NCBI GenBank assembly: GCA_045541455.1
Contig: JAZQJA010000042.1
Coordinates: forward strand, 26,786 to 90,785
Source of the DNA: Eubacteriales bacterium
Lineage (GTDB): Bacteria; Bacillota; Clostridia; Oscillospirales; QAKW01
Direction of reading: 5' to 3'
Length of the DNA: 64,000 nt
Part shown: positions 4,051 through 24,372 of the stretch, in pieces
Position numbering within the stretch: position 1 is the first letter of the stretch
Layout of the letters: each line of letters starts with the position of its first letter
The notes under the pieces: generated by a model
The model's input: only the letters and a program-made list of their open reading frames with translations
What the model was told of the DNA's origin: nothing
Database searches by the model: none
Position numbers and translations under genes: made by a program

Positions 4051-4763
4051 TACGACTTCAAAAATACCTTGCCGATTGTGGCATTTGCTCGCGCCGTGCG
4101 GCAGAAACGCTTATCGAACAGGGCAGGGTGAAAATCGGTGCAAAAACCGCAGTGCTTGGTGATAAGGTTATGACCGATGCAACAAGTATAAAGGTTGACG
4201 GTGAACAGGTTTACCCGCGAAAAAAAGAATATAAATATATAATGCTGTATAAACCGCGCGGTTATGTTGCTACCGCCAAAGACGAACTTGGCAGAAAATG
4301 CGTTACCGATATTGTGAAAAAAGAGCGTGCCAGACTCTATCCTGTCGGCAGGCTGGACAGGGACAGCGAGGGTCTTCTTATAATGACTGACGACGGTGCG
4401 CTTGCCAATAAACTTATGCATCCGCGTAATCATATCCCTAAAACATATCGTACAATTGTGCGCGGTAATGTCGATGCGAATGTTTTGCACACTCTTACAA
4501 ACGGTGTTTATCTTGAAGAACTTGATTATACTACAAAACCTGCCGATGTTGATGTGCATGAAGTAAGAGAAGACAAAACAATACTTCTTATCACTATCTA
4601 TGAAGGAAAAAATCGACAAATCCGTAGAATGTGTGAGGCAGTTGGACTTGAGATAATTAGGCTTAAACGCGAGAAAATAGGTAAACTGTCAATAGGAACA
4701 CTTAATGCAGGCCAGTATAGAAAACTTACCGAAAAGGAAGTAACATATCTAAAAAATTTGTGA
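4038..4763 (+). CDS. rluB: rRNA pseudouridine synthase, RluB/RsuA family, with N-terminal S4 domain
   Basis: An S4-like LQKYLADCGICSRR segment is present, together with the catalytic GRLDRDSEGLL motif. Confidence 0.85.
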   Translation: MAELVRLQKYLADCGICSRRAAETLIEQGRVKIGAKTAVLGDKVMTDATSIKVDGEQVYPRKKEYKYIMLYKPRGYVATAKDELGRKCVTDIVKKERARLYPVGRLDRDSEGLLIMTDDGALANKLMHPRNHIPKTYRTIVRGNVDANVLHTLTNGVYLEELDYTTKPADVDVHEVREDKTILLITIYEGKNRQIRRMCEAVGLEIIRLKREKIGKLSIGTLNAGQYRKLTEKEVTYLKNL

Positions 4764-4773
4764 GGATAAGACA

Positions 4774-5382
4774 TTGAAAAAGGTAATTACACTGTTTTTA
4801 ATCTGTTTAATACTTGTTCAGACAGCAAGTTGTGACATAATTACAAATGAAAAAAACAGTATAGGAAAATCGGGTAATACTGTTGTAACTGTATATAACG
4901 CACTTAAAGAAAATTTTGTGCTGCGCAAAAAAGAAGGGTATAGTCTTTACGGCGTTCGTATGATAGTAAACAGCGAAAACGTTGGTATGTATACGTACGT
5001 TTATACCGATAAAAAACCTGACAGCCTTAAATATACCGATATTCTTGTTGTAGAAGTGAATAACCGTACAGGAAGAATAGAAAAATTTTCTGCACCGGAT
5101 TATGAAACTTATGAAACTATGCCGTATGATATGATAAAAACCGCAATGCCGATTGATCCGTCGCTTTACGCTATCGATTCTGATACCGCTGTTAAAAATG
5201 CAGCGAAAGCCCATTTCGGCAATAATTTCAACTTTAACTATATAGAACTTTTTTCTTATTACTACCAGGGTAAGCCGGTTTATATTATAAATCATATTTC
5301 ACTTGTAAATGATTGTATCTACCGTAGTGTAGTAGATGTAATGACAGGTGACGTTATTGATAAATCGGTGGAGGAACTTTAA
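4774..5382 (+). CDS. Hypothetical lipoprotein
   Basis: TTG start after a GAGGA Shine-Dalgarno sequence. There is a signal peptide with a lipobox-like LVQTASC. No motif is recognisable. Confidence 0.5.
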   Translation: MKKVITLFLICLILVQTASCDIITNEKNSIGKSGNTVVTVYNALKENFVLRKKEGYSLYGVRMIVNSENVGMYTYVYTDKKPDSLKYTDILVVEVNNRTGRIEKFSAPDYETYETMPYDMIKTAMPIDPSLYAIDSDTAVKNAAKAHFGNNFNFNYIELFSYYYQGKPVYIINHISLVNDCIYRSVVDVMTGDVIDKSVEEL

Positions 5383-8659: not shown

Positions 8660-9874
8660 ATGAAAGTATTAGTAATTAATGCCGGAAGTTCATCGCTTAA
8701 GTTCCAACTTATTGATATGGACGGCGAAAAACTTATTGCCAAAGGCAACTGTGAATGCATCGGTGAAGACGAAGGCGTTTTCAGTTATAAGGTTGGCGAA
8801 CAGGAACGTACTGTTTTCAAAAAGAAAACAGTAATAAAAGACCATAAAGAAGCATTTAAAATGATTATGCATGAACTTGTTGATGGAGAAGAAAGCGTTA
8901 TTTCTTCTCTTGATGAGATAAATGCAGTCGGACATAGGGTTGTTCAGGGCGGTGACCTTTATGCACAGTCAACGCTTATCACCGAAAAGGTTATTAAAGA
9001 CATTGACGATCTTGCAGTGCTCGCTCCATTACATAATAAAGCACATGTTGTAGGTATACGTGCTTGCGTTGAAGTTTTGGGCGAAAATGTGCCGCAGGTT
9101 GCAGTGTTTGATACATCTTTCCACCAGACAATGCCGGCAAAAGCATATATGTTTGCAATTCCGCATGAGTATTATGACAAATACCATGTTCGCCGCTATG
9201 GTGCTCACGGCACATCTCATAGATATGTAAGTGCTGAGTGTGCTCGACTGATGGGTAAAGACATTTCTGAACTCAAAATTATAACCTGCCATATTGGTAA
9301 TGGCGCCTCAATTACCGCTGTTAAAAACGGTAAGGTTGTAGACACATCAATGGGTCTTACCCCCGTTGACGGTTTTCTTATGGGTACACGCAGCGGCTCT
9401 ATTGACCCGTCGGTTTTAACCTTTATCGCAGAAAAAGAAAATTTAAGTGCACACGATATTGATGTTATGTGTAATAAAAAATCCGGACTTTTAGGTATTT
9501 CCGGTCTTTCAAATGACAGCCGTACAGTTAATGAGGCTGCAGAGCATGGTGATCCTAACAGTGTTCTTGCAATAGAAATGCAACATTACCAGATAATTAA
9601 ATTTATCGGTTCTTATGCGGCAGCTATGAACGGTGTTGATGCAATTGTATTTACAGCAGGTATCGGCGAAAATGACCCGTTGTTACGCCGTAAAGTTTTA
9701 GAAGGCCTTACATATCTCGGTGTTGAACAGGATTACGATGCTAACAGCGTTGCTCACTGTAAAGAAAATACTAAGGTTACAACAGATAATTCAAAAGTTG
9801 CGGCATTTATTATCCCTACAAATGAAGAACTTGTAATCGCGCGTGATACCGTTGAAATCGTAAATAACTTATAA
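8660..9874 (+). CDS. ackA: Acetate kinase
   Basis: The N-terminus reads MKVLVINAGSSSLKFQL. Length and overall pattern are typical of AckA. Confidence 0.95.
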   Translation: MKVLVINAGSSSLKFQLIDMDGEKLIAKGNCECIGEDEGVFSYKVGEQERTVFKKKTVIKDHKEAFKMIMHELVDGEESVISSLDEINAVGHRVVQGGDLYAQSTLITEKVIKDIDDLAVLAPLHNKAHVVGIRACVEVLGENVPQVAVFDTSFHQTMPAKAYMFAIPHEYYDKYHVRRYGAHGTSHRYVSAECARLMGKDISELKIITCHIGNGASITAVKNGKVVDTSMGLTPVDGFLMGTRSGSIDPSVLTFIAEKENLSAHDIDVMCNKKSGLLGISGLSNDSRTVNEAAEHGDPNSVLAIEMQHYQIIKFIGSYAAAMNGVDAIVFTAGIGENDPLLRRKVLEGLTYLGVEQDYDANSVAHCKENTKVTTDNSKVAAFIIPTNEELVIARDTVEIVNNL

Positions 9875-9878
9875 AAAT

Positions 9879-10128
9879 ACAGCCTCACTGTTAGTGTGAT
9901 ACTCCAAGCGGAGTATCACGCTGACAATAGTCAGCATATCACTTAACAGACAAAAAGAAAGAGAAGACTCGTTACTCAAACGAACCTTCTCTTTTCTGTT
10001 GTTCTGTGGGTTTGGGCTACTGCCCAACTACGTTTGTACGTACAAATAATGCTGGTTCTTAACTAGAATTGAAAGTACGTTCAAATTTTCCGTTAAGGAC
10101 ATTGCCTTTTAAGTGAGGCTGTTTTTTT
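9879..10128. ncRNA. Candidate structured RNA or element of unknown class between convergent genes
   Basis: An 11-bp perfect closing stem (9879-9889 with 10112-10122) is flanked by an A-tract and a T7 tract. It encloses at least 6 local hairpins or palindromes. The interior has no ORF longer than 5 codons. Confidence 0.4.
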
Positions 10129-12379
10129 ATACTTTTACAAGTTTTGCGAAGTTTGCCATAACCTTTTTAATACCAACATTGTCAAAATTAATTTCCAGCA
10201 AAACATCGCCGCCCATCGCTTTTTTAGATAGCAAAACACCTTCGCCAAAGGTTTTGTGTAGCACCCTGTCGCCGACGTCAAAATCAAGTTTTACAGCAGT
10301 GGGTGTAGTTGGCTTAAGTATGCCTGTTGTACTAACGGTAGGTGTCACCTTACGTGTTGTGACTTTTGACGAAAAGCTGTATCCGCTATAACCGCTAAAT
10401 GAATGTGCTGTTTCGTTGGTCTTGTCTTTGTTGTAAAGGTATTTTATAAGGCTTGTCGGTATTTCCTTTAAAAATCTCGATGGCTTGTTGTATTTTGTAT
10501 TGCCAAATATTGTTCTGCGCTGGGTGTGTGTGATGTAAAGGCGTTTTCTTGCGCGTGTTATACCAACATACATCAGCCTGCGTTCTTCTTCCAACTCGGC
10601 ATCGGATTCCATGCTGCGCTGACTTGGAAATAATCCCTCTTCGGTGCCAACTATAAATACATTATTAAACTCGAGCCCTTTTGCACTGTGCAAGGTCATT
10701 AAGATAACTCTGTCGTCACTGTCATCAAGATTGTCAATGTCAGTCATTAACGCAATTTCTTCTAAAAATGCAGCAAGCGTGGCATCCTCACTTTGCGTTT
10801 CAAAAACAACAGCTGTTGAAACAAGTTCCGCAATGTTGTTTATACGGTCTTTTGCCTCCTCTGTGTTTTCTGCCTCTAGCATAGAAATATAGCCCGAACG
10901 CACCGCAATTTCGCGTATTAACTCAGATAATGGCACGCTGTCTTTTAAAACACGCATTGAGTCTATAAACTCTGTAAAGTCTTTAAGCTTTGCAGCACTT
11001 CTCGTGATTTCGGGAAAACTAAATGCGTTTGCCGCAACATCAAACATTGAAAGAGAATTTTGCTGTGCCAGTGTATTTAGCGTATCAACTGTCGCTTGTC
11101 CGATTTTTCGCTTGGGCTCGTTAATTATTCTTACAAGCCTTAGGTCGTCTGCTGTGTTGTGAACAAGATAGAGATAAGAAAGAATATCTTTAATCTCTTT
11201 TCGCTCGTAAAATCGCATACCGCCGATAATTTTATAAGGCACACCGCTTTTGACAAGCATTTGTTCTATTGCGTTTGATTGCGCGTTTGTACGGTATAAA
11301 ACTGCAAAATCACCGTAGTGCATATCCTCGGTGGCAACGTCGTCAAGTATGGTGTCTGCAATAAAAAGACTTTCGCGGTATTCGTCATCAAGCATATTTT
11401 CATAAATTAGTTCGCCGTCACCTTGGGCAGTCCAAAGGGTTTTGCCTTTGCGCTCCGTATTGTTTGAAATAACATTGTTTGCAGCGTTTAAAATATTTCC
11501 TGTAGAACGGTAGTTCTGCTCAAGCCGTATAACCGTCGCATTTTTAAAACTTTTTTCAAAAGATAAAATATTTTCAATTGTTGCACCGCGGAATTTGTAA
11601 ATACTCTGGTCATCGTCACCAACAACGCATAAGTTTTGGTGTCCGCTTTGTAACTGATAAATAAGCCTGTACTGAAGCGGATTTGTGTCTTGATATTCGT
11701 CGACCATTATATATTTAAATCTGCTTGCATAATAATCGAGAATATCTGGGTGCATATCAAACAGGATTACTGTTTTTAAAATAATATCGTCAAAATCAAG
11801 AGCGTTTGATTGCTTTAGTTTTTTTTCATAAGCTTCGTATAGTTTGCAAATGTCGTTGTTGTATGTATCATTGCCGAAATTCTCAGTGTAATGGGCAGGA
11901 GATATTTCATTGTCTTTACATTGCGAGATGCGGCTTAGCACTGCACGGGGCGGTAATATCTGCGGGTCAATTCCAAACTCTTTTTGGCATGCTTTTATAA
12001 CGCGAAGCGAGTCGTCGGTATCAAAAATCGAAAAGTCGTTTGAATAACCTATTGCTTCAATGTTACGGCGAAGTATTCTTGCACAAAAACTGTGAAAAGT
12101 AGATGCCGATATGCCCTCGCCGTCTTTACCAAGCAGATTGTCAATTCGTGTTGTTAGTTCTTTTGCTGCTTTGTTTGTAAAGGTTATGGCGAGTATATTC
12201 CACGGCTTGCAAAGACCTTTTGCCAGTATATTTGCAATTCTGCTTATAAGCACAGTAGTTTTACCGCTACCTGCACCTGCAAGTATAAGTAAATGCCCTT
12301 CGGTATGCTCAATTGCACGCCGTTGCATATCGTTCATTTTTAAAAGTTGTGCATTAATTTTTTCGGTAGTGGTTTCCAT
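10127..12379 (-). CDS. pcrA: ATP-dependent DNA helicase PcrA/UvrD (SF1)
   Basis: Walker A AGAGSGKT, the motifs VDEYQDTN and a QNYRS-like segment, and a 750-aa length. Confidence 0.9.
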   Translation of the reverse strand: METTTEKINAQLLKMNDMQRRAIEHTEGHLLILAGAGSGKTTVLISRIANILAKGLCKPWNILAITFTNKAAKELTTRIDNLLGKDGEGISASTFHSFCARILRRNIEAIGYSNDFSIFDTDDSLRVIKACQKEFGIDPQILPPRAVLSRISQCKDNEISPAHYTENFGNDTYNNDICKLYEAYEKKLKQSNALDFDDIILKTVILFDMHPDILDYYASRFKYIMVDEYQDTNPLQYRLIYQLQSGHQNLCVVGDDDQSIYKFRGATIENILSFEKSFKNATVIRLEQNYRSTGNILNAANNVISNNTERKGKTLWTAQGDGELIYENMLDDEYRESLFIADTILDDVATEDMHYGDFAVLYRTNAQSNAIEQMLVKSGVPYKIIGGMRFYERKEIKDILSYLYLVHNTADDLRLVRIINEPKRKIGQATVDTLNTLAQQNSLSMFDVAANAFSFPEITRSAAKLKDFTEFIDSMRVLKDSVPLSELIREIAVRSGYISMLEAENTEEAKDRINNIAELVSTAVVFETQSEDATLAAFLEEIALMTDIDNLDDSDDRVILMTLHSAKGLEFNNVFIVGTEEGLFPSQRSMESDAELEEERRLMYVGITRARKRLYITHTQRRTIFGNTKYNKPSRFLKEIPTSLIKYLYNKDKTNETAHSFSGYSGYSFSSKVTTRKVTPTVSTTGILKPTTPTAVKLDFDVGDRVLHKTFGEGVLLSKKAMGGDVLLEINFDNVGIKKVMANFAKLVKV

Positions 12380-18744: not shown

Positions 18745-19422
18745 TTATTCTTCTGCACGTTCTTTAAGCTTTTTTAACACTTTTTTTTCAAGCCGTGAAA
18801 CAGCTACTTGTGAAAGACCAAGTTCCTTAGAAATTTCTGATTGTGTCCTGTCTGCGAAAAAGCGTAATACTATCAATCTTCGTTCATTGGTATCAAGGGT
18901 GTCAAGTAACTGCGTAATCATAATGCGGTTAAGTGATTTGTTTTCTTCCGAACTTGTCTTTGCTATCACCCCGCCTTCCTCTACACTTGCATCAAGTGAA
19001 CAGGTACCTTGTGTTGCGTCAAGAGCATAAATTATTTCTTCAGCAGGGATGTTACATTTTGCAGCAAGTTCTGAAATTTTAGGTTCTCTGCCAAGTTCTA
19101 AAGTAAGCGCTCGCCGTGCTTTTTCTATTCGAAATTTTTGTTCTTTTACACTTCTGGGTACTTTTATTTCTCCGTTGTCACGAAGGTAGGTTTTTATTTC
19201 ACCTACAATTTTTGCGACTGCGTATGTGGAAAATTTAATATTTTTACTTTTATCAAAACCGCGTGCTGCTTTTACAAGGCCTATTGCACCGATTTGAAAT
19301 AAATCCTCATAATCTACGCCAAACCCTGTATATCGCTTGACGGCCATGTTTATAAGGCCAATATTTTCAGTTACAAGTTTGTCCTCATCAATTGTTTTGC
19401 TGTAGTTTTTAGTTTCTAACAC
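18745..19422 (-). CDS. sigF: Sporulation sigma factor SigF
   Basis: This is a sigma-70 family protein (regions 2-4) and the third gene after spoIIAA and spoIIAB. Confidence 0.85.
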   Translation of the reverse strand: MLETKNYSKTIDEDKLVTENIGLINMAVKRYTGFGVDYEDLFQIGAIGLVKAARGFDKSKNIKFSTYAVAKIVGEIKTYLRDNGEIKVPRSVKEQKFRIEKARRALTLELGREPKISELAAKCNIPAEEIIYALDATQGTCSLDASVEEGGVIAKTSSEENKSLNRIMITQLLDTLDTNERRLIVLRFFADRTQSEISKELGLSQVAVSRLEKKVLKKLKERAEE

Positions 19423-19847
19423 TTTGTATCAAGTACCTTTGTCATTGTCACCTTTGTCCCTTTACCAACTTGAGAACGTACAGTGATTTTGTCCATAAAC
19501 GATTCCATAATTGTAAAACCCATACCACTTCGTTCATTTTCGTTGCCGGTTGTAAAAAGCGGCTGGCGTGCTTTATCAATGTTTTCTATACCGCAGCCTT
19601 TGTCACGAACAGAAATTATAATTTTTTGTCCGACCAATTTAGCGGTTATGTAAATTACTCCTATATGGTCACGATATGCGTGCACTATGGCGTTAGTAAC
19701 AGCCTCACTTACTGCTGTTTTTATTTCGTTAATTTGTTCAAGGGTAGGGTCAAGTTGGGTTGCAAGCGCCGCAACTGCCACGCGTGAAAATCCTTCGTTA
19801 CTTGAACGTGATAAAAATTCAATTTTAATGCAATTATCAGTCTTCAT
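19416..19847 (-). CDS. spoIIAB: Anti-sigma F factor (serine kinase) SpoIIAB
   Basis: GHKL ATPase motifs are present (E..TNAI.HAY, DKGCGI, GMGF). The gene overlaps both neighbours. Confidence 0.85.
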   Translation of the reverse strand: MKTDNCIKIEFLSRSSNEGFSRVAVAALATQLDPTLEQINEIKTAVSEAVTNAIVHAYRDHIGVIYITAKLVGQKIIISVRDKGCGIENIDKARQPLFTTGNENERSGMGFTIMESFMDKITVRSQVGKGTKVTMTKVLDTKC

Positions 19848-24124: not shown

Positions 24125-24366
24125 TAAAAAAACTCGTCTCATTTTAAATGAGACGAGTATAATATACCCGCGGTACCACTCAAATTGCAGCTTAAATAAA
24201 ACTGCCACTTAAATACACATAACGCCGTGCTGCGAAAGGTTCTACTCATTTTTTAAAAACTTTCTTCCTTTAGACTCTAAAGCTACAACAAAAGCTAATG
24301 CTTACGGCTTGCACCAACCGCCGCATCTCTTAGCGCATAACACTTTTGCCCTCTTTGTCAACATCT
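24125..24366 (-). promoter_or_regulatory. T-box riboswitch leader of valS (probable specifier GUU)
   Basis: On the minus strand I see a Stem I with AGAGA (K-turn) and a GGTTGGTGCAA distal loop. The T-box sequence GAGTGGTACCGCGGG (24167-24185) is present. The terminator ACTCGTCTCAT...ATGAGACGAGT plus T7 lies at 24125-24158. GTT at 24287-24289 lies next to the Stem I base. Confidence 0.85.
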
Positions 24367-24372
24367 TAAATA

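Follow-up and report, generated by a model that had tools for sequence, protein, structure and literature searches.

What fills the gap between the convergent ackA and pcrA genes: a structured RNA or a piece of mobile DNA? In the window, i.e. the whole stretch of 64,000 nucleotides that was analyzed, the ackA ORF runs from 8660 to 9874 (+) and the pcrA ORF, which encodes a UvrD/PcrA helicase, from 10127 to 12379 (-). The two genes converge on a gap of 252 nt, in agreement with the first-pass annotation, which had considered a 3'UTR-derived sRNA, a new RNA class or a small non-autonomous element within a terminator loop. We consider it likely (probability around 0.7) that positions 9890-10111 represent the relic of a non-coding, non-autonomous mobile repeat, located at the apex of a pre-existing bidirectional ackA/pcrA terminator. 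The mobility and the terminator setting of the family to which it belongs are well supported.

The borders of the gap resemble those of a terminator. The 11-bp closing stem that had been proposed is indeed formed by perfect complements, ACAGCCTCACT (9879-9889) and AGTGAGGCTGT (10112-10122), and the A-tract and T7 said to border it were recovered: the stem is preceded by AAAAT and followed by T7 (10123-10129). The A-rich tract at 9870-9878 and its T-tract partner extend the outer palindrome to 19 of 20 positions, and the ackA coding sequence ends at most 5 nt from the stem. Together, the outer stem and the A/T tracts enclose a loop of 222 nt, while intrinsic terminators consist of a GC-rich stem with a short loop. 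Ordinary terminators in the same genome are palindromes composed of an A-run, a stem, a short loop and a T-run (e.g. 48152-48203 and 49154-49191). A third exact ACAGCCTCACT is present at 19699-19709, within an ORF of 143 aa with a HATPase_c domain (19416-19847, -) that adjoins a sigma-factor gene. It was considered as a related site and dismissed as a chance match inside a coding gene.

The interior of the gap is highly structured. The hairpins described earlier at 9896-9919, 9920-9935 and 9949-10003, as well as TTGGGC-TACT-GCCCAA (10012-10027) and the palindrome at 10033-10046, are all present. The reported dense self-complementarity is reflected in a minimum free energy (MFE) of -104.2 kcal/mol on the + strand, compared to -54.5 +/- 4.3 for shuffled sequences (z = -11.7), and a z of -11.0 on the - strand. 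The structure of the ackA/pcrA gap is thus real and well beyond chance. Other elements of the first description did not survive. A stem CTGTTAGTG/CACTTAACAG, thought to enclose the first two hairpins, lacks conservation in relatives and does not appear in the MFE fold. The TTGAA-N6-TTCAA sequence (10069-10084) does exist, but the segment that contains it (10055-10087) is free to vary within the family and the hairpin is not conserved. The statement that no ORF exceeds 5 codons overlooked an ORF of 52 codons with a TTG start (9869-10027, -); this ORF was discarded as non-coding because the family alignments are full of frame-breaking indels of 1-2 nt. On the - strand, a terminator scan picked out the purine/pyrimidine hairpin at 9949-10003 as terminator-like; for the + strand, similar behavior is suggested by the T-rich 3' flank of the hairpin. 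With a hairpin that is terminator-like both ways, a transcript from either side may stop inside the element.

Table 1. Features of the ackA/pcrA element, of the full-length family copies and of the EF-G-like terminators
Feature	Sequence or composition	Positions	Strand	Remark
Window: A-rich tract	TATAAAAAT	9870..9878		Contains the ackA stop codon (9872-9874); counterpart of the T-tract at the other end
Window: outer terminator stem, 5' arm	ACAGCCTCACT	9879..9889		Host-derived
Window: left junction and element left end	GTTAGT	9890..9895	+	Family consensus TTAGC or TATGC
Window: cap hairpin H1	GTGATACTCC-AAGC-GGAGTATCAC	9896..9919		Left-end palindrome common to the family
Window: last surviving module	Hairpin GCTGAC-AATA-GTCAGC (9920-9935), then heptamer ATATCAC (9936-9942)	9920..9942
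Window: purine/pyrimidine hairpin	A-rich 5' flank, T-rich 3' flank	9949..10003		Terminator-like in both directions; helix 9 of the covariation analysis
Window: conserved 3' domain	GGGTTTGGGC-TACT-GCCCAA hairpin, TTTGTACGTACAAA hairpin, ATGCTGG	10009..10054		Helices 10 and 11
Window: family-variable segment	Contains the TTGAA-N6-TTCAA hairpin	10055..10087
Window: element right end	TTCCGTTAAGGACATTGCCTTTTA	10088..10111	+	Family consensus CTCCGTTAAGGACATCACACTT; degenerate inverted copy of the left end
Window: outer terminator stem, 3' arm	AGTGAGGCTGT	10112..10122
Window: T7 tract	T7	10123..10129		Overlaps the pcrA stop codon (10127-10129, -)
Reference full-length copy	L102	3016-3462
Full copy, 5' part	A-run; 5' arm of a variable GC-rich stem; left junction TTAGC or TATGC; cap hairpin H1
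Full copy, forward array	Three or four hairpins, GTGATAT after each			Corresponds to the Rfam Gut-1 motif
Full copy, reverse array	Three to five hairpins, ATATCAC after each
Full copy, after the reverse array	Purine/pyrimidine hairpin with A-rich and T-rich flanks; GGGTTTGGGC-TACT-GCCCAA; TTTGTAC..GTACAAATGC hairpin
Full copy, 3' part	Variable stretch; CTCCGTTAAGGACATCACACTT; 3' arm of the stem; T-run			CTCCGTTAAGGACATCACACTT is a degenerate inverted copy of the left end
Element ends with flanking TA	TA-TGCGTGATACTCC ... GGAGTATCACGCA-TA
L030 EF-G terminator, occupied	CACCCGCTG-TT-TA[element]TA-AA-CAGCGGGTG-T7
L146 EF-G orthologue (92%), empty plain hairpin	CACCCGTCGCCCGG-AT-CCGGGCGACGGGTG			Stem base as in L030
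L147 EF-G orthologue (92%), empty plain hairpin	CACCCGCCGTCCC-TTCT-CGGGGCGGCGGGCG			Stem base as in L030
L148 EF-G orthologue (89%), same terminator spot	Different Gut-1-type array	4575-4760		55 bits

The interior proved to be a member of a dispersed repeat family, with dozens of copies elsewhere. One genome per species was scanned for the H1 pattern (GTGATACTCC-N4-GGAGTATCAC) and at least 118 stretches matched. All but 2 of the 118 fetched loci (both chance matches) belong to metagenome-assembled genomes (MAGs) labelled Clostridia, Oscillospiraceae, Acutalibacteraceae or Ruminococcus, mostly from the ruminant gut; among the matches listed, the at least 116 loci with the pattern are spread over around 95 Oscillospirales assemblies. 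Several MAGs contain at least 2-4 matches. Many copies are found at contig ends, which implies that the repeats break assemblies. The body of the window copy (9914-10111), of which a single one is visible in the 64 kb, could be aligned by BLAST to around 35 of these loci at 75-87% identity, and the homology covers the cap hairpin, the last module, the purine hairpin, the 3' domain and the right end. One of them, L102, has 87% identity over 201 nt (E ~1e-62), a homology that favors the option of a small element within a terminator loop. We collected 31 full-length copies, which measure 365-440 nt. The window element had no match in the phage or plasmid collections, and the full L102 element had none in the plasmid collection. 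In the phage collection the latter gave one partial match, with 81% identity over the forward array: positions 5074-5168 of GenBank MT835815.1, a 17-kb contig from human faeces that is recorded as 'Bacteriophage sp.' and carries no annotation. The H1 pattern itself matched once in viral contigs, by chance, in a coding region of high GC content.

The family varies around the common plan that is given in Table 1. The cap hairpin H1 is a perfect 12-bp inverted pair in itself, and the terminal inverted repeats are short and imperfect; the left end TAWGYGTGAT agrees with the reverse complement of the right end at around 8 of 10 positions. The purine/pyrimidine hairpin is kept in all family copies. 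Other subfamilies with H1 use GTGAAATC/GATTTCAT or GCGATAT heptamers, some members consist of H1 and the purine hairpin only, and 10 of the 119 occurrences consist of H1 by itself, on top of a longer perfect hairpin or terminator stem. Compared to L102 the window copy lacks around 170 nt between 9919 and 9920 (query positions 77-248), with the junction at a repeated TATCACG. The same short layout is found in L039, in another species and at another locus. At 3148-3176 of L070, the cap hairpin has a loop that reads GCTT instead of AAGC and is thereby inverted with respect to the remainder of the element; such an inversion is the expected outcome of recombination between the two arms of a palindrome in DNA. 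A variant that consists of only the cap and the forward and reverse arrays occurs in L032 (560-850, reverse complement) and L042 (3140-3440). It ends in a predicted near-consensus promoter (TTGCTT-17-TATAAT, with TG in L032), which partly coincides with the 3' arm of the stem around the element and points towards the downstream gene; on the basis of this prediction, some copies may supply promoters. A putative internal promoter of the long copies (TTGCTT-17-TAGAAT) was rejected, as its spacing is not conserved and it was absent from the promoter scan; the region is missing in the window copy.

The members of this homologous family are dispersed over unrelated loci. The flanking genes differ between loci, and clustering of 690 flanking ORFs yielded only common families (e.g. 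AraC and ABC transporters). Every full copy is located between the arms of a different stem and runs into matched A and T tracts. The outer stem formed by a copy's own flanks had a median score of 32, compared to 13 for cross-paired flanks, and 23 of the 29 outer stems exceeded the 95th percentile of the cross-paired controls. The flanks are host DNA and lie outside the element. Gene 3' ends abut the element: most downstream genes (19 of 26) are convergent, and most upstream genes (16 of 24) are co-directional.

Furthermore, near-identical copies are found at different sites. L114 and L080, which represent different species and sites, share 98.6% identity over 368 nt, and L080 and L030 share 97.6% over 370 nt; in both pairs the rest of the 6.5-8-kb loci is dissimilar. 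Between L114 and L030 the identity is 93.9% over 409 nt, which includes the A/T tracts and part of the stem. The unit common to the first two pairs runs from TATG.GTGATAC to CACACTTA, and the similarity stops exactly at the element. Judged from these alignments, the element has moved recently.

A view of an insertion is provided by the EF-G-like gene located 5' of the L030 copy, for which close orthologues with different terminator contents were found (Table 1). The terminator is occupied in L030 and empty in L146 and L147, thus the orthologous site is polymorphic for presence and absence of the element. These empty terminators, together with the fact that the closing stem differs in every copy, corroborate the option of an element in a terminator loop. 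The array that occupies the same spot in L148 has a cap hairpin, GGCGCACTTCC-TTGT-GAAGTGCGCC, that matches the human-gut Gut-1 seed sequences and not H1. The contig of the closest EF-G orthologue (96%; L145, 4568-4627) stops 60 nt after the gene, and this end may be an assembly break at a repeat copy.

Within the youngest subfamily (L114, L080, L030, L058 and L060) the unit has TA on both sides, and the reconstructed targets are perfect palindromes centred on TA. By analogy, these flanks would fit a TA duplication like that of IS630/Tc1-mariner elements, although a duplication within a palindromic target is indistinguishable from an inverted repeat; it is clean in the youngest subfamily only and blurred or absent in older copies. 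Neither a transposase, nor an ORF-carrying autonomous copy, nor a recurrent neighbour gene was found in the around 116 loci, and pairs of a cap hairpin and a right end located 0.6-5 kb apart enclose ordinary genes.

For the ackA/pcrA terminator itself, the original hairpin may have read ACAGCCTCACT-GTTA-AGTGAGGCTGT, which is one possible reconstruction. A scan of metagenomes for empty sites of the form ACAGCCTCACT-N(0-30)-AGTGAGGCTGT yielded 18 hairpins, none with the flanks of the window. One metagenome contig (L140, 176-201) carries exactly the reconstructed sequence in an unrelated genome; given this unrelated context, the match was judged a coincidence. In the closest ackA relatives (82-87% protein identity) ackA is followed by a GH20 gene, and the element is absent. 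The same element was recovered, at 97% identity, in two metagenome contigs of the same species (L001 and L002).

The comparison with L001 indicates that the window copy is under relaxed constraint. Within the three flanking genes 22 of 6234 positions differ (0.35%; the genes are 99.6-99.7% identical), and within the element 7 of 252 (2.8%; 97.2% identical), around 8-fold faster. Four of these seven differences (9985, 10088 and 10103-10104) are window-specific departures from conserved family positions, of which 10103-10104 lie in the right end; the right end (10088-10111) has three derived substitutions. One of the differences retains pairing as U.G and one falls in a loop. On this sequence evidence the window copy looks like a decaying relic, unlike a constrained RNA gene. 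Neither strand-specific structural conservation nor purifying selection, the marks of a functional ncRNA, was found at the locus. The options of a new RNA class or a 3'UTR-derived sRNA are not supported at this locus, as the element is missing from the ackA region of the closest relatives, diverges faster than its neighbours, has lost consensus bases and belongs to a family with a structure that is not strand-specific.

The absence of a known family, as stated in the first-pass annotation, holds for the window copy: a search of Rfam with positions 9800-10200 on both strands gave no relevant match at the gathering threshold or at E <= 10. It does not hold for the family, as the longer members contain the Gut-1 motif (Rfam RF01706), which among known families is nearest to the element. 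Gut-1 was reported by Weinberg et al. 2010 as a 77-nt sRNA candidate, found only in human-gut metagenomes and with no organism, function or mobility ascribed to it, and was rated as certainly an RNA (PMC2864571). In the literature searched we found no later mention of Gut-1, nor an organism, genomic context or function for it. The gathering score of the model is 50 bits. The forward array of L102 scored 43 bits, and the arrays of L119, L088, L043, L032, L014 and L148 scored 50.3-59.9 bits, at or above the gathering score; the reverse array is recognized by the model as well, on the other strand. For the window region, relaxing the cut-off to E <= 10 still gave no match to Gut-1 on the two strands. 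The forward array has been lost there, and the three tandem hairpins with GUGAAAU or GUGAUAU linkers that define Gut-1 membership are lacking. The match of the long family members to Gut-1 extends over three hairpins separated by GUGAUAU or GUGAAAU. In addition, the published Gut-1 seed sequences lie in a like setting, with a cap hairpin, heptamer arrays in both directions and an enclosing stem, directly behind a stop codon. What was described as a 77-nt orphan candidate is here one module of a dispersed Oscillospirales element of 365-440 nt. In this way an orphan Rfam family since 2010 is now placed in Oscillospirales genomes, as a module of a mobile, terminator-embedded repeat, and this alters how the motif should be annotated and studied.

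The main competing view is that of a functional structured RNA, of which the arrays and the 3' domain would be transcribed, as part of the ackA or pcrA 3'UTR or from an own promoter, and would serve for example as a protein sponge or a 3'-end stabilizer, the mobility being a means of spreading only. The Gut-1 scores of the long copies and the rating of Gut-1 as an RNA speak for this view, and so does the covariation within the family. The alignment was tested against 500 shuffles and slid controls: 98.3% of the cells within the hairpins were paired (around 40% in the slid controls), 15 pairs varied on both sides and none of the 500 shuffles reached the observed covariation score. The covariation is concentrated in the module hairpins, like the one at 9920-9935, in which A-U to C-G changes are observed in the family. 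The helices left in the window are mostly invariant, including helices 10 and 11 of the 3' domain, which do show G.U variants; within this domain G.U variants outnumber A.C variants on the + strand of the window, which also speaks for this view. The fixed G.U pairs, in contrast, point to the + strand in the forward array and to the - strand in the reverse array, thus no single strand is favored. The family totals are 219 G.U and 238 A.C cells, and the UUCG- and GNRA-type loops are likewise split between the strands; a strand assignment on these grounds was abandoned, considering that the arrays contradict each other. The orientation of the element relative to the gene that reads into it is mixed, the window copy is devoid of the Gut-1 array and diverges around 8-fold faster than the flanking genes, and the ackA coding sequence within 5 nt of the stem leaves no room for a dedicated promoter. 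Altogether, a functional RNA appears unlikely.

Even less probable is a host repeat of the REP/BIME kind, in which units of a hairpin and a heptamer would be recognized as ssDNA by a domesticated HUH/Y1 (RAYT-like) enzyme and would, at gene 3' ends, modulate termination and mRNA decay. In its favor are palindromic units with a short conserved 7-nt foot, in alternating orientation, extragenic at gene 3' ends and between convergent genes, with compensatory changes that keep the hairpins on both strands and a cap loop that is inverted in one copy (L070). Unlike in REP copies, all hairpin sequences within one element differ, whole units of 368 nt move as one piece, the apparent copy number per MAG is low (a lower bound), and there is no RAYT or IS200-like gene near the copies in the around 116 loci. 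That the gap is a spacer with fortuitous structure, or what remains of genes located between ackA and pcrA in relatives (GH20, methyltransferase), can practically be dismissed. Relatives do have extra genes at this position, but the gap has no similarity to the GH20/methyltransferase loci, its fold has a z of around -11 to -12 on both strands, and the dozens of homologous copies elsewhere refute this reading.

Among known systems, the mobile repeat that we favor can be compared to the RUP and Correia elements, which are bacterial MITEs of the IS630/Tc1-mariner type. Like these, it is short, non-coding and dispersed, has near-identical copies at unrelated sites, imperfect terminal inverted repeats and (in the youngest subfamily) TA on both sides, is intergenic and is able to supply terminator-like hairpins. 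It differs from them in that a cognate transposase was not found in the around 116 loci, the TA duplication cannot be demonstrated in older copies, the apex of a palindromic terminator is the insertion point in nearly all full copies examined, and its interior is made up of arrayed, covarying hairpins accompanied by a recurring heptamer. Targeting of a palindrome loop by a mobile element has a precedent in IS1397, which, like ISKpn1, inserts into the loops of REP sequences. In that case the target is one repeated sequence, whereas here it is any terminator stem.

For the ackA/pcrA locus these data are consistent with the following scenario. An element would have been directed to the tip of the palindromic terminator, possibly with a TA duplication as in IS630/Tc1-mariner elements and with a transposase supplied in trans. 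The copy has lost all modules but one, via a deletion between TATCACG repeats. The compact fold and the internal, bidirectional terminator-like hairpin might keep the termination of ackA and pcrA going, and the insertion would be tolerated because both genes can still terminate. Most likely, the ackA/pcrA element is neutral baggage in a terminator. More tentatively, and with doubt prevailing, one may propose that the Gut-1 motif is the recognition platform of an undescribed mobile class that homes structurally to the terminator apex, whatever the sequence of the stem, that is harmless because it brings its own bidirectional terminator, and whose arrays are bound as ssDNA or RNA by an enzyme encoded elsewhere in Oscillospirales. 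For an element to insert at the apex of terminator hairpins that have no sequence in common would be an unusual choice of target, and hints at a safe-haven strategy for selfish DNA in compact genomes. Intergenic 'RNAs' of gut MAGs that are highly structured may, likewise, be repeats.

Some other features of the window are worth recording. The palindrome at 48152-48203 is a perfect one of 24 bp with a 4-nt loop (AATAAAAAGTGGGTTTTAAAAAAC / GTTTTTTAAAACCCACTTTTTATT), an ordinary empty bidirectional terminator of the same type that the element appears to occupy. A T-box leader at 24146-24370 (-), with 105 bits in Rfam, was the sole cis-regulatory RNA detected in the window. Finally, a tRNA-Leu (GAG) at 49070-49154 is followed by a tandem duplication of around 202 nt (49137-49307 and 49340-49509). 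The duplicated unit repeats the 3' end of the tRNA, an A6-stem-T6 terminator and a second palindrome, and could be an attachment-site scar or a local duplication.
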